Shown here one piece after another: positions 42,083-62,698 of a DNA stretch of 64,000 bases. The position numbers and the translations under genes are program-made. This DNA comes from a virus, in IMG/VR virus record IMGVR_UViG_3300030060_004050, positions 32,001 through 96,000 of that record, one strand, 5' to 3'. Below the pieces are notes generated by a model. The model was not told the origin of the DNA and made no database searches. It saw nothing but the letters and a program-made list of their open reading frames with translations. The stretch's first letter is position 1. Every line of letters begins with the position of its first letter.

Positions 42083-42489
42083 TGTGTTTGTTTGATAATG
42101 ACACAAAAGAAGAAACAAAAGAATGCACTAAGTGTAAGCGAGAATTACCAAAGTCAAACTTCGGGCCTTCTAGTGGTGGAGTTTACTTACGAGGTGAGTG
42201 CAGAGAGTGCGCCCGTAAGGCAACAAAACTTGTTAAAGAACTAAGAGAGAAACAGAGCAAACCAAAAGAAACATATACTTGTCCCATATGTGAAAAAAAT
42301 ATAACAGAGATACAAGGTAATTCATGGTGCTTGGATCATGATCACAAAACAAAAAAATTCAGAGGTTGGTTATGTCATAAGTGTAATCGAGCCTTGGGAA
42401 ACTTTGACGATGATATTGAATTGCTTAAAAAAGCGATAGAGTACATAAAGAAAGATCGCAATGACGACACAAATCAAACCTTATTATGA
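42082..42489 (+). CDS. Endonuclease VII-family (putative free-standing homing) endonuclease
   Basis: CTKC..CREC; CPIC; LDHDH..FRGWLCHKCNRALG. Confidence 0.85.
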   Translation: MCLFDNDTKEETKECTKCKRELPKSNFGPSSGGVYLRGECRECARKATKLVKELREKQSKPKETYTCPICEKNITEIQGNSWCLDHDHKTKKFRGWLCHKCNRALGNFDDDIELLKKAIEYIKKDRNDDTNQTLL

Positions 42490-44056
42490 GCGAAACGAAC
42501 ATGTGATAAACTCACATGTAAACTGTAATTTCGAAGACTTGCTTGAGATGACTCCCGACGAGTTTCGTGAGTGGGTAGTTGAAATGCGTAAGGTGGTTAA
42601 GGATGCATGGGACACCCATGGTTGTCCTCCACGCACAGGAAAAGATGAAGAAGAAATCGTTGATGCTTTCAATAAGATTGCAGAGTATCCTGTTCATCAA
42701 TTTACACATACCGATGAACTGTCGGATGTAGAAAACGATGTAATCATCAACAAGTCTCGTATGGCAGTTGAAGTTGATCAGTGGTTCTCTAATATGTTCA
42801 AGACAAGAATTAACTACACGGAGAAGGACAACGGGTATTCAATTTATGATTTGGTTGCAGACGACAATCGCCTTGATCAAGTGGTAAAAGGTGCAATGCG
42901 ACACCTTCGCCGAGATTCTTTTTACACACATGCCTTGTCTGCGATAAAGCATGATAGTAAGTATGCTATTGTAGATGTGTCTTCTGGTGAAGAGTGGATG
43001 CAAGTGTTTTTTGATAATCCTAAAATCTTCAAAGGACATGACTTTCTTCTCGAACAAATTAAAATTAGAGAAGGCGTAAACTCCGGTTACTTTCAACTAG
43101 AGCAAGATGATGTTCTACAACTTACCAGAGAACAAGTAGAAAAATTTAAAGATAAGATGTCATACCGTCATCATTCTACATTTGACATTGATAATATGCC
43201 AGATGATAAAGTATATGCCATTAGAATTTACAAGACGGGAAGAAAAGTTTTTCCAGCAGGATTCAAGTCTTTTCGTATTGGATATATTCAACCTGCTGTA
43301 AACTTCCCACCAATGACTGCTAAATACTTGTATGAAAGATTTACAGATGACATTAAAAATCAAGAACGTATTGTCATCTATGATCCGTCAAGTGGTTGGG
43401 GCGGTCGTATACTTGGTGCTATGGGTGTTCGGGATGATCGTAGGATTCATTATGTGGGGACTGATCCTAATCCTGATAATCTTATTAATGATGGGACTTA
43501 TAGTAAGTATGAGTCTCTTGCCGATTTTTATAATACCAAGACATATCGCGGAAACCCATTCTTTTCAGAAACGAATACTTTCGACGTATTCCAAGAGGGT
43601 TCGGAAGTAATTCATCTAAACAAAGACTTTCAAAAATACAAGGGAAGTCTTGACTTGGTATTTACTTCACCCCCATACTTTAATAGAGAAGCGTACTCAG
43701 AGGACGACAACCAATCCTACAAGAAGTTTAATTCCTACGAGTCTTGGAGACATGGATTCCTACGTCCAACTCTAGAAACTTGCGTCGAATATTTGCGAGA
43801 AGAAAGATACCTTCTTTGGAATATTGCAGACCTTCTGGTTAGTGGTGACTATCTTCCTCTTGAAAAAGATAGCAGAGATATTCTAGAATCATTGGGTATG
43901 GAATATAAATATACTTTGAAGATGGCATTAGAGGGTATGCCTGGAAAGAACAGAATTGGTGAAGACGGAAAACCAACATGTAAAAATTTCTGTCAGGTTG
44001 ATGGTAAGTACCTAAAGTATGAACCAGTATTTGTATTCTGGAAACCCAAACAATGA
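42461..44056 (+). CDS. Amino-type (N4C/N6A) DNA methyltransferase-like protein
   Basis: YDPSSGWGGR SAM motif; FTSPPYF catalytic motif. Confidence 0.75.
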   Translation: MTTQIKPYYERNEHVINSHVNCNFEDLLEMTPDEFREWVVEMRKVVKDAWDTHGCPPRTGKDEEEIVDAFNKIAEYPVHQFTHTDELSDVENDVIINKSRMAVEVDQWFSNMFKTRINYTEKDNGYSIYDLVADDNRLDQVVKGAMRHLRRDSFYTHALSAIKHDSKYAIVDVSSGEEWMQVFFDNPKIFKGHDFLLEQIKIREGVNSGYFQLEQDDVLQLTREQVEKFKDKMSYRHHSTFDIDNMPDDKVYAIRIYKTGRKVFPAGFKSFRIGYIQPAVNFPPMTAKYLYERFTDDIKNQERIVIYDPSSGWGGRILGAMGVRDDRRIHYVGTDPNPDNLINDGTYSKYESLADFYNTKTYRGNPFFSETNTFDVFQEGSEVIHLNKDFQKYKGSLDLVFTSPPYFNREAYSEDDNQSYKKFNSYESWRHGFLRPTLETCVEYLREERYLLWNIADLLVSGDYLPLEKDSRDILESLGMEYKYTLKMALEGMPGKNRIGEDGKPTCKNFCQVDGKYLKYEPVFVFWKPKQ

Positions 44057-44955
44057 ATTGTTTAATTACAGGTGGAGCAGGACATATAGGATCTCACCTC
44101 GCCCTTAGATTGCACGAAGAGGGACATGAGGTTGACATCATCGATAACCTATCGGTAGGAAACCGTGATGCAATAAAAGATCTAGAAAATCTGGGATGGA
44201 AGGGCGAGTTTACTAAAGCAAGTATCAATGATCCTCAAATGGTGGCATATGCACTTCAATTAAAGAAGTATGATGTGTGTTTTCATTTAGCAGGTTACAC
44301 TGTCCCACAGGACTCTGTTGAAAAACCAGTGGTTTATTATGAAAACAACTTGTCCCCGTTTACTCAGTTTCTATCCTCTCTCATATTCCATGGTGTTAAT
44401 AGGGTAGTCTTGTGTAGAACTGAAAATACCTACACTCCTTGTGAAACATCTGCCAGAACAGTAGAGCAAATTATTTACGATGTATGTAAGGTAACTCCTA
44501 ACATAAACTACTCATCTTTTAGATTACCAGAGGTAGTTGGAAATAATATTGATGGTAAGATTGGAGACTATGGGTTTGGTAAAAAAAATAAACTCATTTG
44601 CAATTGTATGTCCGCATCTGCAAACATTATTCCGCAGGTGGTGGTGGACAATGGAGCCGATTCACACAAATTAATTCATGTGGATGATGTGGTTGAAGAA
44701 CTAATTAAGTCCTTAAGCGACACGAAGAATCAAATTCATCATGTAAACCCAGCCATAATTACAACTGCCAGAAGTATAGTTGAATCGTGTATAAAGGTAA
44801 CTGCCGGTAAATACCCTGTCATCGAGAAAAAGTATGATCAGGATCAAGTTGATACCGTCGATATTAAAGTAAATAAAAGTGCCTCTATAACTTGCCTAGA
44901 TACAATTACAAAATCAATTTGGAATTGGATCAAAAGAGTTAAAAAGATTCCTTGA
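44053..44955 (+). CDS. GalE-like NAD-dependent epimerase homologue, catalytic residues apparently lost
   Basis: TGGAGHIGSHL, HLAG, YYENN, IHVDD; no YxxxK. Confidence 0.7.
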   Translation: MNCLITGGAGHIGSHLALRLHEEGHEVDIIDNLSVGNRDAIKDLENLGWKGEFTKASINDPQMVAYALQLKKYDVCFHLAGYTVPQDSVEKPVVYYENNLSPFTQFLSSLIFHGVNRVVLCRTENTYTPCETSARTVEQIIYDVCKVTPNINYSSFRLPEVVGNNIDGKIGDYGFGKKNKLICNCMSASANIIPQVVVDNGADSHKLIHVDDVVEELIKSLSDTKNQIHHVNPAIITTARSIVESCIKVTAGKYPVIEKKYDQDQVDTVDIKVNKSASITCLDTITKSIWNWIKRVKKIP

Positions 44956-46316: not shown

Positions 46317-46508
46317 ATGGCTAAGAACAAAAGAAAGAATCGGGGTAAGAAGCAAGGCGAGTCCTTACATTATGAAGACTACTATGATCTTCGAAAGACT
46401 ACAAAAAGACCTACAAAACATAGAAGAGTAAAGGATAAGAAATATCTTAAAGATATGATGCGGGGAGATATTGACATTGAATCGTATCACGACTATAATG
46501 GTAATTGA
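46317..46508 (+). CDS. Small basic hypothetical protein
   Basis: 63-aa ORF filling the rnh-gp45 gap. Confidence 0.5.
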   Translation: MAKNKRKNRGKKQGESLHYEDYYDLRKTTKRPTKHRRVKDKKYLKDMMRGDIDIESYHDYNGN

Positions 46509-46525
46509 ACACGGAGATCTAAATC

Positions 46526-47227
46526 ATGGAAACTACAATGACATCAACTAAAATTTCAAACGAAACTCTAGAAGTATTAAAGAACTTCTCATCAATCAAC
46601 TCAAATATTCTCGTTAAGGAGGGAAATGTACTGACTACCATTTCCCCCGTCAAGAATGTAATGGCAGAAGCAACTGTCCCCGAAACTTTCGATCAGGAGT
46701 TTGGTATCTGGGATCTTAACAAGTTCCTTGGAACCATTTCCCTTTTCGATAGTCCTGAGTTTATGTTTGAGGATAAGTTTGTAACGATCAGTTCGAGCAA
46801 AAACAATTCGTCTGTTCGATACTACTACTCAGAACCTTCTCTTCTTACCACGGTAAACAAGAAGATTAATATGCCCGAACCAGTTGTCACTTGTTCGATT
46901 ACCCAAAAGGTATTCAATGACATCCTTAAGGCATCTTCCGTTCTTCAGGTTAGCGACATTGCAATTCAGTCTGACTCCGACGAACTGCAAATTGTCGCAC
47001 TGGATAAGAAGGATAAGAGCAGCAACAGTTACTCCATCAAGATTGCAGACATGCCTATTGGTGGACCTACTTTTGCTTTCTACTTCAAGGCAGAAAACCT
47101 GAAGATGCTTCCGGGTGATTATGATGTAAACATCACGGAGAAGGTTGTGAGTGAGTTCACCAACACAAACCGAAGTCTTAAGTATTGGGTAGCACTGGAA
47201 TCTGACTCATACTACCAGGCACCATGA
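46526..47227 (+). CDS. gp45: Sliding clamp gp45
   Basis: TLEVLKNFSSINSNI; TISPVKNVMAEA; FGIWDLNKFL; ENLKMLPGDY; YWVALE. Confidence 0.95.
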   Translation: METTMTSTKISNETLEVLKNFSSINSNILVKEGNVLTTISPVKNVMAEATVPETFDQEFGIWDLNKFLGTISLFDSPEFMFEDKFVTISSSKNNSSVRYYYSEPSLLTTVNKKINMPEPVVTCSITQKVFNDILKASSVLQVSDIAIQSDSDELQIVALDKKDKSSNSYSIKIADMPIGGPTFAFYFKAENLKMLPGDYDVNITEKVVSEFTNTNRSLKYWVALESDSYYQAP

Positions 47228-48129
47228 ACACTTTAGTAACAGGTGGAAGTGGACTTGTTGGATCTTGTGTCGGAGGAACGCATAAACCGCGTTCTTCCGA
47301 TCTTGATCTATTAAATTATGATCAGGTATACCAATACATTAAAGATCACAACATAAAAAGAATAGTTCACTGTGCTGCTAGGGTGGGTGGTGTAAAAGAA
47401 AATACAGAAAAACCAGCAGACTTCTTCTATGACAATATGCAGATGACACTGAACGTAATTCATGCTGCTAAAGAATGTAATGTTGAAAAAGTTATTTGTA
47501 TGCTATCTACATGCATCTTTCCATATCAGGTAGAATATCCATTGACAACCGAACAGATTCATCTTGGAGAACCCCACCCGTCAAATTATGGGTATGGTTT
47601 TGCTAAGAGAATGACTGAAGTAAACGCTAGAGCATATAGAGAACAGTATGGAATGAATATAGTTACTGTTGTTCCGTGTAATGTATATGGCATAGGTGAC
47701 AATTTTAACTTGGATAGTTCTCATGTTATTCCGGGATTGATTCATAAGTATTATCTTGCATCAAGAGATGATACTGATGTTACAATCTGGGGAGGTGGAC
47801 AAGCAAAAAGAGAATTTATATACAATAAGGATCTGGGTAAAATTGTAGACTGGGTTGTTGACAACTATGATGATGAAGAGCCTCTTATAATTTCACCCGA
47901 TGAAGAAATTAGCATCGCTAGTCTTTCTAATGAAATTGCATCAATTTTTAGTTTCTTCAATACAATCTTTTTTGATAATTCGATGCCTGACGGAATGCTA
48001 AGAAAACCATCAGATAATAGCAAACTCAAAGAGTTGCTCCCTGATTTTTCTTATACATCTTTAGGAGAAGGACTTCAAGAAACCATAGATTGGTTTGTGG
48101 AAAATTACGATAAAGGTATTAGATTATGA
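47224..48129 (+). CDS. GDP-L-fucose/colitose synthase (Fcl/ColC-family epimerase-reductase)
   Basis: TGGSGLVG; HCAARVGGV; LSTCIFP; GEPHPSNYGYGFAKR; PCNVYGIGDNF..SHVIPGLI; REFIY; DGMLRK. Confidence 0.9.
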   Translation: MNTLVTGGSGLVGSCVGGTHKPRSSDLDLLNYDQVYQYIKDHNIKRIVHCAARVGGVKENTEKPADFFYDNMQMTLNVIHAAKECNVEKVICMLSTCIFPYQVEYPLTTEQIHLGEPHPSNYGYGFAKRMTEVNARAYREQYGMNIVTVVPCNVYGIGDNFNLDSSHVIPGLIHKYYLASRDDTDVTIWGGGQAKREFIYNKDLGKIVDWVVDNYDDEEPLIISPDEEISIASLSNEIASIFSFFNTIFFDNSMPDGMLRKPSDNSKLKELLPDFSYTSLGEGLQETIDWFVENYDKGIRL

Positions 48130-49295
48130 AAACCATGAAAAAATGGAAGTTGATGGATGATGCCATCACACAAGAACAAAGAGAAAAACTTGCAGCCTTC
48201 TGCTTAAAGAGCGACAGGTTTTCTCAGGGACAGGAAGTACGAAAATTTGAAGAACAGTGGAGCAAGTGGCAGGGTTGTAAATACTCTGTATTTTGCAATT
48301 CCGGTTCCTCTGCAAACTTCTTGATGGTGCAAGCAGCAAAAGAACTTTGGGCCCCGCACCCCGGAGCAACTTGGGTTTCTCAGGCATGTACATGGGCAAC
48401 TACAGTTTCTCCTATAATGATGTCGGGTGACAATTTGCAACTTTGTGATGTGAGTCTTCCCTCTCTTGGACCTGATAAAAAGAATCTTGAAAAGATTTTC
48501 CATGATGGTTGTTTTAATGGAGACTGTCCACGTTATCTTTTCCTCGCACACCTTCTAGGATTCTCTGCGATTGATAATGAAATTCTTCAAATGTGTGACT
48601 ACTATGGAGTAACTCTATTGGAAGATTGTTGCGAATCTCATGGTGCAACATACAGAGGGAGAAAGATTGGAAACTTTGGTGATATGTCCTCCTTCTCATT
48701 CTATTACGGTCATCATATGACAACGATTGAAGGCGGAATGGTTTGCACTAACCATAAAGATCTGTATGAAAAACTATTGCTCCTCCGCTCACATGGACTC
48801 ATGAGAGAACTACCAGAGGACTCAAAAGAAGAATATAAAGATCATGTGGTGGATGATAACTTTACTTTTATGTTGCCTGGTTTCAACATGAGATCCACCG
48901 ACTTCAATGCTATTCTAGGTCAAATGCAACTAGAAGATCTCGACAAACACAATGACATTCGAACAGAAAACTTCGATGTGTTTGCCAATAAATTAGACAG
49001 TGAAAAGTATTACACCGATTTTAGAACAGAAGGAAACTGTAGTTTTTGTTTCCCTGTTATTTGTAAAGATGGTGGATCGAAAAAACTAAGAGAAGTTCTA
49101 GAGAAAGAGGGTGTCGAAACTCGACCTGTTATTGCGGGTAACCTACACAGACATCCGTTCATGAAGAAAGTAAATCAGTTTAGATATGATGATAACGCAG
49201 AGATCGTTCATAAGAATGGTTTCTACATTGGTAACAACCACTCCGTGCAGACAGGAGATGTAGAGTGGTTGGTAGATTTATTGAATAGGAGTTGA
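48126..49295 (+). CDS. PLP/PMP-dependent DegT-family enzyme, ColD/E1-type 3-dehydratase
   Basis: NSGSSAN; EDCCESHGA; SFSFYYGHHMTTIEGG with His at the Schiff-base Lys position; LRSHG. Confidence 0.8.
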   Translation: MKTMKKWKLMDDAITQEQREKLAAFCLKSDRFSQGQEVRKFEEQWSKWQGCKYSVFCNSGSSANFLMVQAAKELWAPHPGATWVSQACTWATTVSPIMMSGDNLQLCDVSLPSLGPDKKNLEKIFHDGCFNGDCPRYLFLAHLLGFSAIDNEILQMCDYYGVTLLEDCCESHGATYRGRKIGNFGDMSSFSFYYGHHMTTIEGGMVCTNHKDLYEKLLLLRSHGLMRELPEDSKEEYKDHVVDDNFTFMLPGFNMRSTDFNAILGQMQLEDLDKHNDIRTENFDVFANKLDSEKYYTDFRTEGNCSFCFPVICKDGGSKKLREVLEKEGVETRPVIAGNLHRHPFMKKVNQFRYDDNAEIVHKNGFYIGNNHSVQTGDVEWLVDLLNRS

Positions 49296-49296
49296 T

Positions 49297-50295
49297 GTGA
49301 AAAAAGCATTAATAACCGGAATTAGTGGACAAGATGGATCTTATCTTGCAGAATTTTTGCTGGGTAAAGATTATGAAGTTCATGGAATTATTAGAAGAAA
49401 CTCAGTTGCAGAAAATCAAACGGCAAGACTCAAGAACGTATTTGACGATGATCACCTTCATCTCCATTATGGAGACGTTGAAGATTTATCTTGTCTTATT
49501 GAATTGTTGCAGAAGGTACAACCAGAGGAAGTGTATAACCTAGCAGCACAGTCTCATGTTAGAATTAGTTTTGATGTTCCTTTGTATACTGCTGCTGCAA
49601 CTGGACTCGGTAGTCTTAAGGTAATCGAGGCATGTAGATTGGTTTGTCCAGATGCTAGAATTTATCAAGCGTCTTCGTCTGAGATGTTCGGAAATAGTAT
49701 CGATGATGACGGGTTTCAAAGAGAGTCAACACCTCTATCTCCGGTGAGTCCATATGGATGTTCAAAAGTTTTTGCCTATAACATTGCGAGAAACTATAGA
49801 AACTCATATGACATGTTTATCTCAAACGGTATTCTGTTTAATCATGAATCGCCTAGAAGAGGATCTAACTTTGTAACAAGCAAAGTAGTGAAGGGTGCAT
49901 GTGCAATTAAGATGGGTGAACAAGAAAATCTAAAACTAGGAAACTTAGATGCAACTAGAGATTGGGGACATGCAAAAGATTATGTCGAGGCAATGTGGAT
50001 GATACTTCAACACAGTGTACCCGACGATTTTGTTTGTGCGACCGGAGTATCGCATAGTGTTCGTGATCTATGCGAATATACCTTTAAAGTTCTTGACATG
50101 GACTATAAACAGTATATAATTACAGATGAAAAGTACCTTCGTCCAGAAGAACTAGAGGATCTAAAAGGAGACTCGTCTAAACTTAGATCACAAGTAGGAT
50201 GGAAACCGAGGTACTCTTTTGAATTGATGATCAATGAAATGATTGAGCATGAACTTTGGAATGAATATCAAGTGAGTTTGGAGGACATTATATGA
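49297..50295 (+). CDS. gmd: GDP-mannose 4,6-dehydratase
   Basis: ALITGISGQDGSYLAEFLL; YNLAAQSHVRISF; YQASSSEMFG; SPYGCSK; FNHESPRRG..FVTSK; GNLDATRDWGHAKDYV. Confidence 0.96.
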   Translation: MKKALITGISGQDGSYLAEFLLGKDYEVHGIIRRNSVAENQTARLKNVFDDDHLHLHYGDVEDLSCLIELLQKVQPEEVYNLAAQSHVRISFDVPLYTAAATGLGSLKVIEACRLVCPDARIYQASSSEMFGNSIDDDGFQRESTPLSPVSPYGCSKVFAYNIARNYRNSYDMFISNGILFNHESPRRGSNFVTSKVVKGACAIKMGEQENLKLGNLDATRDWGHAKDYVEAMWMILQHSVPDDFVCATGVSHSVRDLCEYTFKVLDMDYKQYIITDEKYLRPEELEDLKGDSSKLRSQVGWKPRYSFELMINEMIEHELWNEYQVSLEDII

Positions 50296-51245
50296 CGGTT
50301 GCTGAAGCAACAAAAGATTTTTTGTGGGTGGAGAAGTATCGCCCTAACACTATTGCAGACTGTATTCTCCCGAAAGATATCAAAGATACCTTTCAGGCTA
50401 TTGTTGATTCTGGTGAACTTCAAAACCTTCTCCTATCAGGTGGAGCAGGATGTGGTAAAACCACGATTGCAAAAGCACTTTGTAATGAGATGGGTTCAGA
50501 CTGGATTATCATTAACTGTTCGGAAGATGGTAACATTGATACCCTTCGAACGAAGATTAGAAACTTTGCAAGCAGCGTTTCAATCGGTGGTGGTAACAAG
50601 GTAGTAATCCTAGATGAGTTTGATTATGCTAATGCACAGAGTATGCAACCTGCTCTTCGTGGGTTCATCGAGGAATTTGCTAATAATTGCCGTTTTATTC
50701 TGACTTGTAACTTCAAGAACAGGATTATTGAACCTCTTCATTCTAGATGTACCAATATAGAGTTTCGTATTCCCAATGCAGAGAAACCTGCAATGGCAGC
50801 AGGATTCTTGGATAGGATTGAATACATTCTCAACCAAGAGGGAATTGAATATGAGCAGCGAGTTCTAGCAGAACTTGTGATGCGACACTTTCCCGACTTC
50901 CGCAGAGTAATCAACGAACTTCAAAGATACTCTGTTGCAGGGACAATTGACATTGGTATACTTTCTAGAGTTGGTAGTGTAAAAATCAACGAACTCATGG
51001 ATGCGATGAAGATGAAGAAGTTTACTGACGTTCGTAAGTGGGTTGTTGAAAACCTTGATAACGATCAGACTAGAATCTTCAGAAAGATCTATGATGGTTT
51101 GTATGAAACTATGGAACCACAAAGTATCCCGAGAGCAATTCTTGTTCTTGCCGATTATCAGTATAAGTCTGCATTCGTAGCAGATCAAGAGATTAACCTT
51201 ACAGCATGTTTAACAGAACTAATGATGGAGTGTGAATTCAAATGA
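50292..51245 (+). CDS. gp44: Clamp loader large subunit gp44
   Basis: LWVEKYRP; GGAGCGKTT; VVILDEFD; ALRGFIEEF..NCRFILTCN; IIEPLHSRC; FPDFRR. Confidence 0.96.
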   Translation: MTVAEATKDFLWVEKYRPNTIADCILPKDIKDTFQAIVDSGELQNLLLSGGAGCGKTTIAKALCNEMGSDWIIINCSEDGNIDTLRTKIRNFASSVSIGGGNKVVILDEFDYANAQSMQPALRGFIEEFANNCRFILTCNFKNRIIEPLHSRCTNIEFRIPNAEKPAMAAGFLDRIEYILNQEGIEYEQRVLAELVMRHFPDFRRVINELQRYSVAGTIDIGILSRVGSVKINELMDAMKMKKFTDVRKWVVENLDNDQTRIFRKIYDGLYETMEPQSIPRAILVLADYQYKSAFVADQEINLTACLTELMMECEFK

Positions 51246-51541
51246 AGGGATTTAAACCACATGGAGATAAAGTAGTCATCGAACTCTGCGAAAAGAAGAA
51301 GGAGTATGAAAACATTATCTACGAAGACAAGAAGAATATTCCTTGGATAAAGGGTAGAGTTTTATCAATTGGTGCAGGGACAAAGGATGAAAGCGGTAAA
51401 GTTTACCCTGCTGAATTTGAAGTGGATGACTATGTTGTTTTTGATAAAACCAAAGGCGTGGATACATACGAGGGTTTAGCAATCGTAGACATACGATCTG
51501 TCGTCATGGTTGTAGATAAAGATACAGAGATATCAGGATGA
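51242..51541 (+). CDS. GroES/Cpn10-like co-chaperonin
   Basis: FKPHGDKVVIE; KGRVLSIGAG; EFEVDDYVVF. Confidence 0.7.
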   Translation: MKGFKPHGDKVVIELCEKKKEYENIIYEDKKNIPWIKGRVLSIGAGTKDESGKVYPAEFEVDDYVVFDKTKGVDTYEGLAIVDIRSVVMVVDKDTEISG

Positions 51542-52388: not shown

Positions 52389-53075
52389 ATGAAAATTGAT
52401 ATTCGTGATGTGACTTGTCGCTGGATTAACCTAGACAGCGACACAGAAAATGCTAAAGAAATGGAAACCCAATTTAAAGAACTTGGGTTCGACAACCACA
52501 AAAGATTTTCTGCCAGAGTAGTAGATGCACCAGAGGGTACTCCGTACAATCTCAGGCATTATGTCGGTTGTGCCCAGTCCCATATTGATGTGTTAACAGA
52601 AGAGTTTGATAGCGGACACCTCCTAGTATTGGAGGATGATGTTGTTACAACCCCATGGTATAAAGATACAATAGAAGTTCCCGATGACACGGATGCTGTG
52701 TATCTTGGTGTTTCGCATGGAAATCAAAATTACCTCGCACAAGATATATCAGAGCCGGGTGGAGAATGGTTAGCAAGAATACAGGGAGTATTTGCAACTC
52801 ACGCCATTCTTTACTTGACAAACAAATACAAGCAAGCAACAATCGACATCGCAAAAGAATACGCATACAATCGTAGCACTCCGTTTGACGTTGGTTGTGC
52901 AGAAATACAAAAATCGTTTAACGTTGTAACACCACACCTTCCTTTCTTTTATCAATCCGATGATCGAAGAAATGAAAACAACTGGGGTGATATAACGTCT
53001 CAACCATTAAGAATGATGGCTTATGGATCAGGACCACTAGGACCGGGATACGGTAGAGGACCACAAGGAGGTTAA
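52389..53075 (+). CDS. GT25-like glycosyltransferase (copy 1)
   Basis: WINLD; FSA; GCAQSH; LVLEDD; YLG; THAILY. Confidence 0.65.
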   Translation: MKIDIRDVTCRWINLDSDTENAKEMETQFKELGFDNHKRFSARVVDAPEGTPYNLRHYVGCAQSHIDVLTEEFDSGHLLVLEDDVVTTPWYKDTIEVPDDTDAVYLGVSHGNQNYLAQDISEPGGEWLARIQGVFATHAILYLTNKYKQATIDIAKEYAYNRSTPFDVGCAEIQKSFNVVTPHLPFFYQSDDRRNENNWGDITSQPLRMMAYGSGPLGPGYGRGPQGG

Positions 53076-53076
53076 T

Positions 53077-53958
53077 ATGTTATGTTTTCCAAGATTAGGT
53101 GATTACGGTTACTTAGGTAACGCAATGTTCCAGTACTCTGCTCTACTCGGTATTGCAGATAAACATGGATACACCCCCGTTTATGATTATGAAAAAACAG
53201 GGACAATGGTTACCCTTCATGATCATTTTAAGATTACAAAGGCAGAGCAACTTGAACAATGGAAGCAAGTTCACGGAATGAAGAGAGTTTGGAAAGAACC
53301 TCACTTTAATTTTTCCGAATATGCATTTATGGACAAACCTCCGCTATCAAGCGAAAGAAAAAAGAAACTTGGTATTGTTGACGAGTCTCCTCCTATCGTT
53401 CGAGAAGACACAGGACTAAATGGATACTTCCAGTCAGAGAAGTATTTCAATCACATTGAAGATACAATTCGATCCGAGTTTACCTTTAGTGATGAGGTGC
53501 GGGAACAATGTGAAGAAACAATCAAACCCATTAGAGAGAAGGACAAGATTGTAGTGTCCTTACATGTTCGATTAGGAGACTACAAGATGCTCGAACATGT
53601 CTATGTCCCTCTGGTAAAAACTGATTATTATCAAAAGGCAATCGCTTACCTATCAAATGAATTTGGTGAGGACAACCTACACTTTATTGTTTTCTCAGAT
53701 GAACCTCAAATTTGCAAGCAGATTTTTCAAGGAGAGAATATTGCTTACGCTGAAGGTGGATCTCAGACTCAAGATATGTGCCTGATGTCAATGTGTGATC
53801 ACAACATCATCGCTAACAGTTCATTCAGTTGGTGGGGTGCATGGTTAAACAACAACAAGGACAAGAAGGTAATTGCTCCACACGGTTGGTTCCAACCAAA
53901 TGAAAAAGATCCAAAGAACACTAAGGATCTATACTGTGAAGATTGGATTATTCTGTGA
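53077..53958 (+). CDS. GT11 alpha-1,2-fucosyl/colitosyltransferase
   Basis: GYLGNAMFQY; GYFQSEKYF; SLHVRLGDY; VFSD; DMCLMSMCDHNIIANSSFSWWGAWL. Confidence 0.9.
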   Translation: MLCFPRLGDYGYLGNAMFQYSALLGIADKHGYTPVYDYEKTGTMVTLHDHFKITKAEQLEQWKQVHGMKRVWKEPHFNFSEYAFMDKPPLSSERKKKLGIVDESPPIVREDTGLNGYFQSEKYFNHIEDTIRSEFTFSDEVREQCEETIKPIREKDKIVVSLHVRLGDYKMLEHVYVPLVKTDYYQKAIAYLSNEFGEDNLHFIVFSDEPQICKQIFQGENIAYAEGGSQTQDMCLMSMCDHNIIANSSFSWWGAWLNNNKDKKVIAPHGWFQPNEKDPKNTKDLYCEDWIIL

Positions 53959-55565
53959 AAAACATACTCTCATTTTATGGTGGACATGATGCATCTGTTA
54001 CGTTTGTTGATAAGCAAGACAGGGTAAGAGTTATCGAAGTAGAGCGATATGTTAAGCAACGCTACGCTGCTTTCTCTTCATATCAAAACAAAAGATCTTT
54101 TGGTATTAGTGATGCGAAGAGATTAGATTTTCTAAATTACTTGTATGACTCTGTTTTCGATCCGGAAAAGATCGACACTATTTTATACATGGGTTTGTCT
54201 GAAGATGATGCAAATCTAATTAAAAAGTTTTTTCCTAATGCAGAGTTTAAACACATGAATCATCATCGTTCACATGCCTATTGTGGACATTACCAGTCGG
54301 GTTTTGAAAAGAGTATTATATTTTCAGTAGATGGTGGTGGTGTGGATCATGGACAGACGGTAACCACAAAAGTATTTTTAGGCAACGGAAACGACATCGA
54401 GGAACTTGAAGATTGTAAAATTGATTTCGGAACCGCCTACATGTCAGTTGGTAAATATATTTCTGAAATCAAAAAAAAGCAAGACGACTCCCTTGCCTGG
54501 GCAGGAAAAATCATGGGACTTTGTGCCTATGGTGAAGTAAGAGAAGAATGGGTAGAACCCATGACAAGGTTCTATAAAACAATATCAGAAAAAACACATG
54601 AAAATATTGCATCTTCTGATCAAAGTTTCGGATCTGAAATCATTCAAGAACTGTTTCCAGACACAGTTCTAACTCAAGACTGTCTAAAGGGTAAAGACAG
54701 TTATGATCTTGCTGCAACCAGTCAACATGTGTTTGAAGAACTTTTGTTCGAGTGGATGGAACCATATGTTAACGAATACAGAAGAGATGTTGTTTTAGTT
54801 GGTGGGTGTGCATTAAACGTTCTATACAATCAGAGATTCTCTGAGTATATGTTTGAAAAGAACATGAATAAACTGTACGTTCCACCAAACCCCAATGACT
54901 GTGGATTGTCTCTCGGATTTTTCCTAGAGGAGTGTCCTGAGTTAAGAGGTAAAGATTTCGTGTACGAAGGAATTGAACTCCTAGACAGAGACGATCTACA
55001 AAAGCATGTTTCTGAAAGAAACGCGAAAGAAGTCAATACATCAGATATTGTTGACATTATCAAACGAGGAGAAATTGTTGGTTTGGTATATGGTGACTCT
55101 GAGATCGGACCTAGAGCATTAGGAAACAGAAGTATTATCTGTGATCCCTCTTTCGAAAACATGAAGGACATCTTGAACAAGAAAGTAAAGTTTAGAGAGT
55201 GGTACAGACCTTTTGCCCCTGTTTCAATGCTACACCACTCCAACACATACTTCCACAAGGTGTTCGAATCAAACTACATGAGTTTTGCACCAAAGGTTAA
55301 AGAAGAGTATCAGGAAAAACTTCGTGCCATTACTCATGTTGATGAAACCTCTAGACTACAAACTGTTTGTAAAGTCGGAGGACACCGAGGGTTCATGGAC
55401 ATTCTAGAGGAGTTGAATCGTAGAGAAGAGATCCCTGTCATTCTAAACACATCTTTTAATATCAGAGGGTATCCGATCCTCACAACGATAGAGGACGCAC
55501 TTCATGTTCTGGATAATACTGAATTGGATCATGTTGTGGTAGAGGGTTACTTGTTTTCAAAATGA
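53955..55565 (+). CDS. NodU/CmcH-family carbamoyltransferase (probable GTG start 53955)
   Basis: HHRSHA; DGGG; GKIMGLCAYG; GGCALN; GPRALGNRSI; KFREWYRPFAP; HVDETSRLQTV; LNTSFN. Confidence 0.92.
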   Translation: MKNILSFYGGHDASVTFVDKQDRVRVIEVERYVKQRYAAFSSYQNKRSFGISDAKRLDFLNYLYDSVFDPEKIDTILYMGLSEDDANLIKKFFPNAEFKHMNHHRSHAYCGHYQSGFEKSIIFSVDGGGVDHGQTVTTKVFLGNGNDIEELEDCKIDFGTAYMSVGKYISEIKKKQDDSLAWAGKIMGLCAYGEVREEWVEPMTRFYKTISEKTHENIASSDQSFGSEIIQELFPDTVLTQDCLKGKDSYDLAATSQHVFEELLFEWMEPYVNEYRRDVVLVGGCALNVLYNQRFSEYMFEKNMNKLYVPPNPNDCGLSLGFFLEECPELRGKDFVYEGIELLDRDDLQKHVSERNAKEVNTSDIVDIIKRGEIVGLVYGDSEIGPRALGNRSIICDPSFENMKDILNKKVKFREWYRPFAPVSMLHHSNTYFHKVFESNYMSFAPKVKEEYQEKLRAITHVDETSRLQTVCKVGGHRGFMDILEELNRREEIPVILNTSFNIRGYPILTTIEDALHVLDNTELDHVVVEGYLFSK

Positions 55566-56389
55566 AAGTTGCTGAAGAAAAACTAAAATTATTCGTAGTG
55601 GGTGTCGATCCTTGCTGGACAGATCCAAAACAAATATACCAAACAACAAACTCAAAGTGGACTCTTGATGAATCTGGTGTCAAGATTTTTGTTGATCATA
55701 TGTTGGTAGAGGGCTTGTCCTGTCCAGACGAAAACAAATATGCTTGGATATACGAACCAGCATCTGTCATACCAGACTTCGTTGATCACATAAAAAGTAG
55801 TGTGCATCTGTATGCTAAAACATATAATAAACTGTTTACCCACAACAGACAGATTGCAAACCTACACGATAATTTTGTTCTTGTAGATCCCGGTTTTCCT
55901 AGTTGGATTGATTCACCAAAGATACACAAGAAGTCCAAAGTAGCGTCTATGATTACCTCCACGAAAAACTTTACACCGGGACACCGACATAGAATACATT
56001 GGGCGAATAAACTTCATGGACAGTTGGATCTATATGGAAGAGGACATAACGAAATTGAGTCAAAGGAAGACGGACTAAATGACTACATGTTCTCGGTTAG
56101 TCTGGAAAATGATGATACCGTATACACCGAAAAACTCTTAGATTGTTTTCTAACAGGCACTGTACCCATTTATTGGGGAAGCGATGATGTTAAAAATATT
56201 TTTAATAACGACGGAATCATATGGATTGACAGCAACTTTAGCGTAGATTCCTTGACAGAGGAACTATATAATTCTAAGAAAGAAGCAATACAAGAGAACT
56301 TTGAAATTGCAAAACAGGTAAACAAAGGCATCCCGGAAATGGTAGACTTTTTCGTTGATGATTATATTTTAGGAGATATAAATGAGTGA
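55562..56389 (+). CDS. GT10-like (alpha-1,3-fucosyltransferase-type) glycosyltransferase
   Basis: DLYGRG; YMFSVSLEN..YTEKLLDCFLTGTVPIYWG. Confidence 0.7.
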   Translation: MKVAEEKLKLFVVGVDPCWTDPKQIYQTTNSKWTLDESGVKIFVDHMLVEGLSCPDENKYAWIYEPASVIPDFVDHIKSSVHLYAKTYNKLFTHNRQIANLHDNFVLVDPGFPSWIDSPKIHKKSKVASMITSTKNFTPGHRHRIHWANKLHGQLDLYGRGHNEIESKEDGLNDYMFSVSLENDDTVYTEKLLDCFLTGTVPIYWGSDDVKNIFNNDGIIWIDSNFSVDSLTEELYNSKKEAIQENFEIAKQVNKGIPEMVDFFVDDYILGDINE

Positions 56390-57641
56390 TATTCCAGAAC
56401 TAGGATTGTGCATGATTGTCAAAAACGAAGAGCATGTTATTGAAAGATGCTTGGAGTCTATTCACAAATATATTGGATACTGGGTAATTTGTGACACAGG
56501 ATCTACAGACAAAACAAAAGAAGTCATCGAGTCATTTTTCGAAAAGAAGGGAATCCCCGGTGAGGTAGTTGACATTCCTTGGGAGGGATTCGGTGCATCT
56601 CGAACGAAGGCACTTGAATGTGCTAAGGGAAAAATGAAGTATGCATGGATGATTGACGCAGACGATAGCGTCGAGGGAACTCCAAAACTACCCAACCTTA
56701 GCAATCCTGTTGATGGTTACTCCTTGAAAATTAAAAGAGGTGACTTTACATGGTGGAGAAATCATATTTTCAGACTAGAAAGTAACTGGAGATATGAGGG
56801 TGTTCTTCACGAATATGCAACATGTGATGCAGGCGCTGCTATGGTTTGTCTACCAATGAATGGAAATTACCATATCGAAGCAAGAACAGAGGGTGGTAGA
56901 AACGTCGATGTGACATCTCAAGAAAAGTATCTCAAAGATGCTGAAGTGATTATGGATGCACTTACAAACGAAAAGTCTCCACACTATGAACCAGAAAACA
57001 GTCGGTATATCTTTTACCTTGCTCAAAGTTACTTCGATGCTGGTGAATATGAACTCGCAAAGGAGTGGTATATTCAAAGAGCAAAGGCAGGAGGATGGGA
57101 AGAAGAAGTATTCTATGCGATGTATCGTGTAGGTATTTGTAACGTTCTTCTTGAACGTCCATGGCAAGAAATTCAAGATGCTTTTATGCAAGCATGGTCA
57201 TATCGTCCTTGTAGAATTGAACCTCTGTGGCAGATTTCAAGACTCTATAGGCAGAACGGAAACCCAAGACTAGCATATCTGTTTGCAAACCAAGGACTGG
57301 GTGTTCCCTTCCCCGAACAAGATATTCTTTTCCTTGCTCACGACATTTGGGACTGGCAAATTCTAGACGAAGTTGCAGCAACCGCATACTATGTTCATGA
57401 ATTTGAAAAGGGACTTGCTGCATCTAATATGCTGCTGAAGAATCCCAACTTCCCCAAAGAGCATCACGAAAGAACTCTAACAAATATCAAACTATATCAA
57501 GAAGCACTAGCAAACAAGCAAAAAGCAATACAAGAGAGAGAAGAGCGTCTGAAAGGACACTCTGACTATGGTGCTACTTCAAAGAAAAGACCTGAAAGAA
57601 AGAAGTCATTTAAGAAGAGAAAGAAACAAAAGGCAAGGTAA
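56382..57641 (+). CDS. GT2 glycosyltransferase with C-terminal TPR repeats
   Basis: LCMIVKNEEHVIERCLES; DTGSTDKT; IDADD; GVLHE; TPR-like RYIFYLAQSYFDAGEYELAKEWY. Confidence 0.85.
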   Translation: MSDIPELGLCMIVKNEEHVIERCLESIHKYIGYWVICDTGSTDKTKEVIESFFEKKGIPGEVVDIPWEGFGASRTKALECAKGKMKYAWMIDADDSVEGTPKLPNLSNPVDGYSLKIKRGDFTWWRNHIFRLESNWRYEGVLHEYATCDAGAAMVCLPMNGNYHIEARTEGGRNVDVTSQEKYLKDAEVIMDALTNEKSPHYEPENSRYIFYLAQSYFDAGEYELAKEWYIQRAKAGGWEEEVFYAMYRVGICNVLLERPWQEIQDAFMQAWSYRPCRIEPLWQISRLYRQNGNPRLAYLFANQGLGVPFPEQDILFLAHDIWDWQILDEVAATAYYVHEFEKGLAASNMLLKNPNFPKEHHERTLTNIKLYQEALANKQKAIQEREERLKGHSDYGATSKKRPERKKSFKKRKKQKAR

Positions 57642-57671: not shown

Positions 57672-58136
57672 ATGGCAGCAGGCGAATATGACATTTTAGC
57701 AGAGCAAGGTACGACCTTCAAGTTATCTTTAACCTATAAAGACTCATCGGATGCGGTGATTGATCTGGAAGGACAAACGGGTAATATGCAAGTGCGTAGA
57801 TCCGTTAGTGACAATCAGGCACTACTGTTCCTTTCTGGTCCTACGGGATCACATGTTGCACCGGGAATCCGAGGATCGTTGACAGGTGGTGGATCCACTG
57901 GAGAATTTACCACCGGAACTACTCAAGGACAAACCGGAACTGGCGGTGTTATGCTTAACACCAGTTCTACTGGTGGAACAGGGACAACTGGTGGAATCTA
58001 TATTCAAATTGATTCATCTACAATGGCAAACGTACCTGCTGGTAACCACATTTATGATTTAGAATTGGTTTCGGGTTCATCTGTAACTAGAATTCTACAG
58101 GGTAGATTCGAGGTAACTGCGGAAGTCACTAGATGA
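57672..58136 (+). CDS. Virion structural adaptor-like protein
   Basis: [36 protein letters not shown], a type often preceding fibre genes; Gly/Thr insert. Confidence 0.6.
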
Positions 58137-60343
58137 GTTTCAAGATTGTAGTAAACGATAACAACGAACCAAACAAAGTCGTAGTAAACAACGACATTGT
58201 TACTGTTATCGCTCAATCCATAGAAGAAGATTCCACTAGTGTCTTCATTAATTCTCCGTCTGGGGTAGGACCTGGTGGAGATAAAGGTGATCCGGGAGCA
58301 ACAGGAACCACAGGTTCTACAGGTCCAACAGGCGCTCAGGGAACTACTGGAACCACAGGGACTACAGGAACCACTGGTGCAACTGGTGCAACTGGTTCAC
58401 AGGGTGTTCAGGGTATTCAAGGAACTACTGGAACCACTGGAACCACAGGGGCAACTGGCGCTACTGGTTCACAAGGTGTTCAGGGTATTCAAGGAACCAC
58501 TGGGACTACCGGAACTACAGGCACGACAGGTGCAACAGGCGCGACAGGTGCAGATGGAAGTCAAGGTGTACAAGGAACAACTGGCACTACGGGTTCCACA
58601 GGAACCATAGGAAGGGTAGGAATTTGCGGTGGTTCTTCGTTCGACAATAATGAATCTCTTCTGTTCTTCTCTACAACCGATGGTTTAACATTAACATCAT
58701 CTCAAAGTGGGACGGTAACTAAAGTCTTGTTTGATGGTGATGGACTTCTTGGTGCTGGTATGCAGGAAGCATTGTATACCTACGGTTTGACTAGTGGTGA
58801 ATTGAATGCAGTTTCTCCGTCAAGCAATGGTGAATTGCTATTCAACGAAACCAACAACCAATTAGGAATTTTTAAATTTGACAACAGCGGCAGGGATTTC
58901 AGAACACAACTTTCTTCTGCTATAAACAATAATGCCACTGGTAGAGTTGTCTTGAGATTCGATGATGGTATTCAAGCCAGATCATTTGAATTTGACGGAA
59001 CTGATTCCGATGCTGTGTATAACGGAACGTTTTTCAGAATTCCAGTTACTCAAATTAACGGCGGAACAGCAGGTAGCGGTAAAATAGTTGGGGTTGAAAT
59101 TGAACTAGACAACCAGACTATGGGACCTGGTACAGCATTCCGTCTTCCCGGTGGAGGAGAAACTTTCACCAGCGTTGTCACAATGCTTAATGGATTTACT
59201 GGTGGTATCACGCTCAATCACGGAGCAGGAATTACCACTGCTGGTGCATCTGCCACTGGTATAACAATAGGGATTGATCCCTCCTCCACAATAAAGGTTG
59301 CAGGAATTTCATGCGATGGTGGTGCTACGTTTGGTAATAATGTTAGATTCACCTCCGGCAATCACCTCGATATGGGAGAATCTACAATCCGAGGAGGAGG
59401 TAGTGCTGGTAATGCGTTGATGGGACTTGACCTCAATGAAACCCGACACTCCTTACAATTTGGTGAAATTGATACCGAACGCAACTCTACTATTCTTTTT
59501 ATAAATGATCTTAATAAAGAGTATACTTTTTCCGCAGATAGTGGTTGCACGGTAGACATCAATGGAAAACTTGAAGTGAGTGGACTGGTTGAGGCCACTG
59601 CTGGTATCGCTTCCGGTAAGGGAATAACATTTGCAAATGATTCGGATATAATTTTTAATGGTGCATCATCTTCTTCGATCATTCAAAACGGCAACACCGT
59701 AGTGTTGTTTGATGATGCTAATGGACTTGTTAGATTTCCTGTTTTTGCAGTTGATATCGAGCAAAGACTCTCGCATGAGGGAGATAGTGACACATACTTA
59801 GACTTCACTACTAACAATTTAAAGATTCTTACAGGCGGAAATACCGCATTCAATGCTAACGCCACAGGCACAAATATTGGTGGAGTATCATTCGGAGTCA
59901 CCGCCGGCGGAGTGACATTTGGTGGTCCAATAACATTCCCCGATGGAACAACACAATCTACCGCCGCAGATAAACAAGAAACTGTTGCACACTTTACTTT
60001 AACTTCATCCAGCGGACTTACCTCCGGTTCTAGAATTCATAACTTACACTTTGTTCCTTTCAATGCAACAGCAAAACAGATAGGCATAAAAACTTGCGTC
60101 ACTGGTGGAATCACCGCATCAATTCTTGCTGCTAACTTTGCATCTCCATTTGGTGCAACCCAAGCATCAGGAACAAGAACAATCGCAACACTAAACGCAG
60201 CAACCGCATCCTTTGGTGCAACAGGAACAACGATGTCCTCGGCAGCAATTACCGGAGGTTCCTTCTTGTACCTTAAGATCGACGGAATATCTTTCCCAGG
60301 CATTACTGGTGTTCAAGCATTCTTGACGTATGAGAGGTCATAA
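58133..60343 (+). CDS. Collagen-like fibre protein
   Basis: 38 Gly-X-Y triplets; fibre-like C-terminal region ([12 protein letters not shown]). Confidence 0.8.
58277..58618 (+). repeat. Collagen-like (Gly-X-Y)38 tract with recurring [24 protein letters not shown] units
   Basis: Read directly from translation and DNA. Confidence 0.9.
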
Positions 60344-62038: not shown

Positions 62039-62698
62039 ATGAAAATTGATATTCGTGAAATGAGAACCAAGTGGATCAATCTCGACAAAGATACCACTAA
62101 AGCCGAACAAATGATAACTCTACTAGACAGTCATGGGTTTACTTCCCATGACCGTTTTAATGCAATGTGTGAAGACGAAGAGTTCGGAATTACAAGAGAT
62201 AACTGTCAATGGTTCGGAACTCATATGTGTGGACTGTCTCATAGAAAACTTTTACAAGACACAATTATAGCAGATGGAAAACCTATCTTTGTTTTAGAAG
62301 ACGACGTTGAAGTAGAGATGGATAAAATTAAATATGAGATTGAAGTTCCCGATGATGCCGATGCTGTCTATCTAGGAACTTCTCAGGGCGATTGTAACTA
62401 CTCTGCCATAAGTGTAAACGAAGATATAGCAAGGGTAGAGAGAATATTTGCCACACATGCAATCATTCATTTCAACCCAGAATACTCCAAAGCAGTAGCA
62501 AAAATAACTGAGGATGCAGTCAAAGGTGATGGACCTTTTGATGTTGGTATAGCGTATGGTGTACAAAAAGACTTCAACGTATACGCAGTAAAAACTCCAT
62601 ACTTTTATCAAGCAGATTCAAAGAATACCGTGAACAAATACGAGTACATAACTCGAATCCCACTACTTTTAAATGATGAGGAATCTAACTTACTATGA
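62039..62698 (+). CDS. GT25-like glycosyltransferase (copy 2, paralogue of 52389)
   Basis: MKIDIR; WINLD; CGLSH; VLEDD; EVPDDADAVYLG; FATHAII. Confidence 0.65.
   Translation: MKIDIREMRTKWINLDKDTTKAEQMITLLDSHGFTSHDRFNAMCEDEEFGITRDNCQWFGTHMCGLSHRKLLQDTIIADGKPIFVLEDDVEVEMDKIKYEIEVPDDADAVYLGTSQGDCNYSAISVNEDIARVERIFATHAIIHFNPEYSKAVAKITEDAVKGDGPFDVGIAYGVQKDFNVYAVKTPYFYQADSKNTVNKYEYITRIPLLLNDEESNLL

Follow-up and report, generated by a model that had tools for sequence, protein, structure and literature searches.

Three coupled sugar genes in the replication operon of a marine T4-like phage, probably a GDP-L-colitose cassette

We analysed a 64-kb window corresponding to positions 32001-96000 of the linear 118.5-kb virus contig IMGVR_UViG_3300030060_004050 of IMG/VR, which is estimated to be 66% complete and belongs to an uncultured marine T4-like phage of lytic type. 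Inside the replication operon of this phage, between the genes for the gp45 sliding clamp and the gp44 clamp loader, lie three nucleotide-sugar genes that encode an Fcl/FX-family reductase (hereafter fcl-like), a ColD-type 3-dehydratase of the DegT family (colD) and a short-form Gmd (gmd). An earlier note made from the sequence alone had described three coupled genes of these kinds at 47224-50295, and family scans agree with it on the families; the three open reading frames, all on the + strand, have exactly the coordinates that it gave (Table 1). ATGA overlaps join gp45 to the fcl-like gene, the fcl-like gene to colD (an overlap of 4 nt) and gmd to gp44, while a gap of 1 nt separates colD from gmd, which starts at a GTG codon with AGGAG 6 nt upstream; the three genes are thus translationally coupled. 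All three are under strong purifying selection, as the ratio of nonsynonymous to synonymous substitution rates (dN/dS) against the related locus L002, which is 84-88% identical, is 0.06 for fcl-like, 0.03 for colD and 0.045 for gmd. Because these values are low and resemble that of gp45 (0.07), the three open reading frames are functional genes and not chance reading frames. The GC content of the cassette is 0.38-0.39, the same as that of the neighbouring genes. The best reading of the cassette, and in our judgement a probable one, is that it makes guanosine diphosphate (GDP)-L-colitose, the donor of a rare sugar, from the GDP-mannose of the host.

The DegT-family protein contains the motif SFYYGHHMTTIEGG, which had already been singled out in the earlier note, and the first histidine of this motif is H196. 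This residue aligns with His188 of E. coli ColD, the position that is mutated in the Protein Data Bank (PDB) entries 3b8x (H188N), 2r0t (H188K) and 3gr9 (S187N/H188K), and the preceding G195 aligns with ColD Ser187, where aminotransferases have an asparagine. In the ColD mechanism the histidine is the acid/base, an aminomannoseen intermediate is hydrolysed, and the cofactor, which is pyridoxamine 5'-phosphate (PMP), is regenerated from glutamate (PMC8987622). Among 161 homologues, 82 viral and 79 cellular, the catalytic histidine is found in every alignment row that covers the site, including all 82 viral copies, and the residue before it is glycine, alanine or serine. The diagnosis of a histidine in place of the Schiff-base lysine is therefore borne out, and the E. 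coli ColD motif that had been quoted in support of it was correct. A sequence search of solved structures returned ColD (2gms) with 192 bits (E = 1e-55), followed by E1 with 114 and GDP-perosamine synthase with 86. E1, or RfbH, belongs with the E3 reductase to the CDP-3,6-dideoxyhexose pathway and is likewise a PMP-dependent 3-dehydratase with histidine for lysine; however, it needs E3 and carries a cysteine-rich segment after the catalytic histidine, which we take to be its iron-sulphur (Fe-S) ligand motif. This segment aligns with a cysteine-free stretch of the phage enzyme, which makes an E3-dependent mechanism unlikely, and on the absence of the Fe-S motif and the lower score we rejected the E1/RfbH reading. 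The lack of a [2Fe-2S] cysteine motif is what sets ColD apart from E1 and SpnQ. The fold agrees, as the AlphaFold model of the enzyme (predicted local distance difference test, pLDDT, of 86) retrieves ColD at Foldseek ranks 1-10, with template modelling (TM) scores of 0.85-0.88, before E1 and then aminotransferases. Sequence, Fe-S segment and fold ranks thus uphold the earlier assignment to the 3-dehydratases, and the type is that of ColD rather than that of E1 or of an aminotransferase.

A midpoint-rooted FastTree phylogeny of the 161 sequences places the ColD of the window in a 50-row clade composed of viral contigs only (support 100). Viral sequences also form two further clades, one of 20 rows that includes Synechococcus phage ACG-2014f and one of 11 rows. 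The best match to the phage ColD in 185,579 species-representative genomes is 42% identical, whereas metagenome proteins (50-84% identical) and IMG/VR contigs reach 60-84%, and the difference between a cellular best of 42% and viral contigs of up to 84% points to a long diversification of colD within phages. A recent capture of colD from a sequenced host was rejected on these same figures. The third viral clade, of 11 contigs (loci L136, L143-L145, L148, L156 and L160-L165), is linked not to Gmd itself but to a 4,6-dehydratase that is only 30-34% identical to it, and to two different genes of Fcl-like or short-chain dehydrogenase/reductase (SDR)-like type, and the phages of this clade may make a different dideoxy sugar.

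The closest solved structure to the reductase is that of human FX, a GDP-fucose synthase (254 bits, 40% identity), with E. coli Fcl at 156 bits; its identity to the E. coli proteins is 31% for Fcl and 29.5% for ColC. Its AlphaFold model (pLDDT 94.3) superposes on FX (4b8z) with a TM score of 0.96 and a root-mean-square deviation of 1.4 Å. We built a tree of 124 Fcl-family proteins from colD loci plus references, in which E. coli ColC groups with 19 cellular colD-adjacent genes, and E. coli Fcl groups with the Fcl proteins of the cyanophages S-SCSM1, P-SSM2 and S-SRM01 and with the genes of ACG-2014f and S-CAM7. The reductase of the window falls in a third clade of 42 members, 37 of which directly adjoin a colD-like gene, and the equivalents of Ser107, Cys109, Tyr136, Lys140 and His179 are conserved in all 42. 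Across the 50 loci of the window's ColD clade, 28 have the reductase immediately upstream of colD, even where gmd is missing. Because the reductase is adjacent to colD and its catalytic residues are conserved, it is predicted to fill the role of ColC as the functional partner of ColD, and an Fcl-like stereochemical course on a 3-deoxy substrate leads to L-colitose. The earlier equation of this gene with ColC, an Fcl homologue, accordingly holds as to Fcl family, catalytic residues and linkage to colD and fails as to orthology, the protein belonging to an FX-like clade of its own. Colitose synthase activity may have arisen independently in this colD-linked, non-ColC clade. The closeness of the reductase to true fucose synthases also makes GDP-fucose a possible co-product. 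The sub-lineage to which the reductase belongs has lost nine residues from helix αA and strand β2 of the Rossmann fold and kept the glycine-rich loop, a deletion that could affect binding of the 2'-phosphate of reduced nicotinamide adenine dinucleotide phosphate (NADPH). This deletion lies at window positions 47224-47330 (residues 14-25), and the structural model is still very confident.

The phage Gmd has the equivalents of Ser/Thr133, Glu135, Tyr157 and Lys161. Its gene occupies the gp45/gp44 site only in the window and in L002; in the closest relatives (L086-L090, 82-83% identical in ColD), the reductase-colD pair is followed by gp44 with no gmd at the site. Two more distant relatives carry a Gmd 69-73% identical to that of the window elsewhere on the contig, and in two others no Gmd was found on contigs that are only 40-46% complete. 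Over the whole of the window's ColD clade, gmd lies near colD in 13 of the 50 loci, or elsewhere on the contig. The gene is thus a recent and variable part of the cassette, and the reductase-colD pair is its conserved core, as the closest relatives have no gmd there. A phage that lacks gmd would have to draw its GDP-4-keto-6-deoxymannose from the host. A ManC-type gene (PF00483) was not found in the 118.5-kb contig, whose 66% completeness leaves its absence unproven, and the GDP-mannose would therefore be supplied by the host. The description of the pathway as complete is thus right from GDP-mannose onward and does not extend to the supply of GDP-mannose itself.

The analysis establishes what the genes are, their linkage, folds and catalytic residues, the purifying selection on them and where the promoter lies; from these we infer which substrates are used, how the product is configured and what accepts it, as follows. 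Gmd would oxidise and dehydrate host GDP-D-mannose to GDP-4-keto-6-deoxy-D-mannose. The ColD-type enzyme with PMP, in which the acid/base would be His196, at the position normally held by the Schiff-base lysine, would then remove the C3 hydroxyl to give GDP-4-keto-3,6-dideoxy-D-mannose, with its cofactor recharged from glutamate. The FX/Fcl-type enzyme would carry out C5 epimerisation and NADPH-dependent C4 reduction to GDP-L-colitose, and it may turn part of the Gmd product into GDP-L-fucose. The donor or donors are probably consumed by two transferases of the phage, one of glycosyltransferase family 11 (GT11) and one GT10-like, and the acceptor could be a Thr-rich collagen-like fibre or a glycan of the host envelope. 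The proposal that the phage makes colitose, and possibly fucose, is therefore retained as a predicted 3,6-dideoxyhexose route from GDP-mannose, of which colitose is the most likely product.

Several observations weigh against colitose as the product. The phage ColD-like protein is only 32% identical to E. coli ColD, and the two are separated by the midpoint root, the E. coli protein belonging to a cellular branch of 35 rows. Phylogeny, which the earlier note had proposed as a check, thus sets the all-viral clade apart from E. coli ColD; yet ColD is still far closer to the phage enzyme than E1 or the aminotransferases in the search of solved structures, and it is the nearest characterised type by both sequence and fold. 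In C. jejuni the substrate of close ColD homologues is GDP-heptose and not GDP-hexose (PMC10440746), so that membership of the ColD family alone does not fix the sugar. The score of Gmd against TIGR01472 is 409.5 bits, 5.5 below the equivalog cut-off of 415. The reductase lies outside the ColC clade and is not a ColC orthologue, and since it is nearest to bona fide GDP-fucose synthases, the fucose route could be the preferred one. Finally, the donor motif of the GT11 protein is HVRLGD and not HxRRxD, with leucine replacing the second arginine.

A different 3,6-dideoxy sugar, made from another nucleotide sugar (e.g. GDP-D-glycero-D-manno-heptose, as in C. jejuni HS:5) or with other than L-xylo stereochemistry, is an unlikely outcome in our view. 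The C. jejuni C3-dehydratases that work on GDP-heptose are 62-67% identical to ColD (PMC10440746), whereas the phage enzyme is on a separate major branch, its reductase is in a clade of its own, and the dehydratases of the third viral ColD clade, being only 30-34% identical to Gmd, indicate that the ColD family is used with other dehydratases as well. In this cassette, however, the Gmd matches PF16363 over its full length, comes as close to the TIGR01472 cut-off as stated above and has the canonical catalytic residues, and no heptose-activation gene (NTP_transferase) was found in the contig. An Fcl-like course on the 3-deoxy substrate, moreover, is one that gives colitose. The C. jejuni route also relies on a separate cupin epimerase and reductase rather than on a bifunctional Fcl-type enzyme (PMC10440746). 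We consider it improbable that the cassette is essentially a GDP-L-fucose pathway of Gmd and an FX-type Fcl, with the DegT protein minor, regulatory or unrelated, as purifying selection acts on colD no less strongly than on its neighbours, and colD forms, with the reductase, the conserved core to which gmd is dispensable. Such a pathway would fit the similarity of the reductase to true GDP-fucose synthases, the fucosyltransferase families of the downstream transferases, and the Gmd and Fcl with fucosyltransferases documented in T4-like cyanophages (PMC9602691), but the reductase clade stands apart from the clade of the colD-less cyanophage Fcl genes. An aminotransferase making an amino sugar such as GDP-perosamine, for which DegT-family membership and the name 'aminotransferase' on some database records of homologues would speak, is highly improbable and was rejected on the histidine present in 161 of 161 homologues, on the preceding glycine where perosamine synthase has asparagine (the double change S187N/H188K of PDB entry 3gr9 being needed to convert ColD into an aminotransferase), and on the ranking of the PDB matches.

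The predicted route to GDP-L-colitose from host GDP-mannose, to which we return, has the same enzyme set and order of chemistry as the bacterial pathway of Gmd, ColD/WbdK, ColC and the colitosyltransferase WbgN known from E. coli O55/O111, Salmonella O35, Y. pseudotuberculosis O:6 and V. cholerae O139, whose ColD likewise has histidine for lysine and no Fe-S cluster. In E. coli O55, the Fcl-family gene colC immediately precedes colD with an overlap, the arrangement also found in the phage, and near the phage cassette there is a gene of GT11 type whose product is 32.5% identical to the presumed WbgN. Unlike the bacterial genes, those of the phage are inside the replication operon of a lytic-type T4-like phage; its ColD is on another branch of the tree at 32% identity, and its reductase is FX-like, has the N-terminal deletion and is not orthologous to ColC. 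Also unlike the bacterial clusters, no manB/manC, wzx or wzy was found in the phage, the targeted search of the contig having covered the ManC family only.

Among phages, the T4-like cyanophages S-SCSM1, P-SSM2, S-SRM01, ACG-2014f and S-CAM7 likewise carry sugar pathways derived from GDP-mannose together with enzymes of fucosyltransferase families (PMC9602691). The same trio of genes, with a GHH motif in the DegT gene and glycosyltransferase genes after it, is present as gp223-225 of ACG-2014f and gp232-230 of S-CAM7. These colD genes are 40-42% identical to that of the window and belong to a different viral clade, and their reductases, unlike that of the window, group with canonical Fcl; the order is gmd-fcl-colD in a late 'LPS' (lipopolysaccharide) island, as against fcl-colD-gmd between gp45 and gp44. 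The only annotations that these colD genes carry are aminotransferase and 'CDP-4-keto-6-deoxy-D-glucose-3-dehydrase', and one S-CAM7 record has a 'putative CDP-4-keto-6-deoxy-D-glucose-3-dehydrase' beside a 'GDP-L-fucose synthetase'. In Synechococcus phage S-SRM01 (locus L170, 3310-5408), a SIS-domain protein and a nucleoside diphosphate (NDP)-sugar synthase are encoded directly after Gmd and Fcl, which suggests that this phage carries a heptose or other activated-sugar branch.

At least 563 IMG/VR contigs, as well as the cultured phages ACG-2014f and S-CAM7, encode relatives of the phage ColD, so that the cassette is neither unique to the phage of the window nor a rarity of it. Gmd and Fcl with fucosyltransferases have already been published for cyanophages (PMC9602691), while our full-text literature searches (colitose with phage or virus; cyanophage with 3-dehydrase), which covered few of the subscription journals, returned no paper describing virus-encoded colitose synthesis. 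Both the pathway and its kind of carrier are therefore known, and the cassette is under-described rather than unique. What goes beyond the first reading of the sequence is the large virus-only ColD clade, the colD-linked FX-like reductase clade, and the modular gain of gmd with an internal promoter. If the predicted chemistry holds, marine phages would commonly be able to synthesise 3,6-dideoxyhexoses, and the trait would not be confined to bacterial O-antigens; this ability is hidden in surveys of auxiliary genes because the genes are filed as 'aminotransferase' or 'nucleotide-sugar epimerase'. The idea is directly testable, as the cultured phages S-CAM7 and ACG-2014f carry the same trio.

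Family scans of the window show a T4-like gene order around the cassette. Upstream are, in order, the genes for the gp55 late sigma factor, gp47, gp46 and endonuclease VII, a 531-aa protein and a GalE-like SDR, RNase H and gp45; downstream are gp44, a Cpn10-like gene that separates the clamp-loader genes gp44 and gp62, gp62 itself and RegA. In the window's ColD clade, T4 replication markers are also present in the flanks of 26 of the 50 loci. The major capsid protein is about equidistant from the capsid proteins of cyanophages, of the Methylophilales phage Melnitz and of the Pelagibacter phage Mosig. An assignment to the cyanophages was considered and found unsupported, as the contig yielded no psbA and the identity of the capsid protein to those of cultured phages does not exceed 55%.

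The sugar cassette is bracketed by the only two perfect TTGACA-N16/17-TATAAT sites that the 64-kb window contains (Table 1). We calculate a chance expectation of about 0.007 perfect sites for the 19.5-kb region scanned. Both sites are conserved in L002, and in relatives without gmd no perfect sigma-70 site was found at the position of the gmd-internal promoter. The site upstream of gp45 is likely the early promoter of a gp45-fcl-colD-gmd unit. As this perfect sigma-70 promoter precedes gp45, the cassette is, as judged from consensus matches, probably transcribed early with the replisome genes, before late fibre synthesis.

Table 1. Features of the cassette and its surroundings (positions in the window)
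Feature	Position	Strand	Matches and remarks
Perfect sigma-70 consensus promoter, TTGACA-17-TATAAT	46471..46499	+	12/12 match; just upstream of gp45; conserved in L002
gp45 sliding clamp	46526..47227	+	PF09116, 49 bits; stop codon overlaps the fcl-like start
Fcl/FX-family GDP-4-keto-6-deoxyhexose epimerase/reductase	47224..48129	+	301 aa; Epimerase Pfam match; NF047922 (GDP-L-fucose synthase), 229 bits
Putative ColD-type PMP-dependent GDP-4-keto-6-deoxy-D-mannose 3-dehydratase	48126..49295	+	389 aa; PF01041 (DegT_DnrJ_EryC1), 200 bits; G195-H196-H197
Short-form Gmd, GDP-mannose 4,6-dehydratase	49297..50295	+	332 aa; PF16363 (GDP_Man_Dehyd), 393 bits, full length (1-332)
Second perfect sigma-70 consensus promoter	50093..50120	+	inside 3' part of gmd, upstream of gp44; conserved in L002
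gp44 clamp loader	50292..51245	+	PF21328 and AAA
Cpn10/GroES-like gene	51242..51541		PF00166, 39.6 bits; between clamp-loader genes gp44 and gp62
GT25-like glycosyltransferase (weak match)	52389..53075	+	phrog_24091, phrog_2835 'glucosyltransferase'; PF01755 sub-threshold; paralogue at 62039-62698
GT11-family transferase (alpha-1,2-fucosyl/colitosyl-transferase family)	53077..53958	+	PF01531, 84 bits
Carbamoyltransferase, NodU/CmcH type	53943..55565	+	PF16861, 189 bits; PF02543, 80 bits
GT10-like (alpha-1,3-fucosyltransferase family)	55562..56389	+	PF00852, 33.7 bits (cut-off 23.9)
GT2 glycosyltransferase, helical-repeat C-terminal half	56382..57641	+	PF00535, 54 bits
Collagen-like tail-fibre protein	58133..60343	+	PF01391 and tail-fibre PHROGs; 41 G-X-Y triplets, 24 with Thr at Y

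Further downstream, an island of transferase genes surrounds the gene for a collagen-like fibre and also encodes a methyltransferase (Table 1). GT11 and GT10 are families that use donors of the GDP-L-fucose type, and the GT11 and GT10-like enzymes encoded 2-6 kb downstream of the cassette are likely users of GDP-colitose or GDP-fucose; in the window's ColD clade, genes for one or both flank colD in 25 of the 50 loci. Between the GT11 protein and the product of an E. coli O55 gene that is annotated as an alpha-1,2-fucosyltransferase, and that we take to be the colitosyltransferase WbgN, the identity is 32.5%. The HVRLGD motif of the GT11 protein is shared by L087, L088 and L090, and L126 has HIRLGD, as against HxRRGD in WbgN and in the majority of the other phage copies; the donor or the phosphate contacts may have changed along with the motif. 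The carbamoyltransferase is likely a glycan-tailoring enzyme, and the collagen-like fibre is a possible glycan acceptor. No member of the GT1 family (PF00534) was found in the contig, whose completeness of about 66% does not prove its absence. Between the GT2 gene and the collagen-like fibre gene, at window positions 57672-58136, lies a gene for a 154-aa protein with a Gly/Ser/Thr-rich stretch (phrog_1084), which co-occurs with the transferase island in L088, L091-L094, L101, L106 and L125.

Two uses of the sugar can be envisaged. The usual reading of cyanophage 'LPS genes' is that they remodel the host envelope (PMC9602691), and this is the alternative for the cassette as well. As a tentative and rather doubtful proposal, we suggest that marine T4-like phages, a large and mostly uncultured group, make GDP-colitose with or without GDP-fucose early and then O-glycosylate the Thr-rich fibre with their own GT11, GT10, GT2 and GT25-like enzymes. 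If this were so, the virions would bear a 3,6-dideoxyhexose that has hitherto been known only in the surface glycans of bacteria, and the system would be to bacterial viruses what self-glycosylation is to chloroviruses and mimivirus, and would also parallel collagen glycosylation of the BclA type. The GMD and GMER of chlorovirus PBCV-1 and the sugar pathways of giant viruses serve to glycosylate the viruses' own capsids or fibrils. Those systems likewise combine virus-encoded nucleotide-sugar enzymes with transferases, and here too the product may decorate virion proteins; unlike the phage cassette, they belong to eukaryotic viruses that make fucose, rhamnose or amino sugars, and we know of no 3-dehydratase in their pathways. 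The cassette bears on whether phage 'LPS genes' alter the host's surface or the virion.

At window positions 42461-44955, the gene for the 531-aa protein overlaps that for the 300-aa GalE-like SDR, and the pair is kept upstream of RNase H in L002 and L086-L089. The C-terminus of the 531-aa protein (phrog_12517) is weakly DNA-methylase-like, with a PF01555 score of 20.7 bits that is below the cut-off, and the GalE-like epimerase could be a source of UDP-galactose for the GT25-like enzymes.

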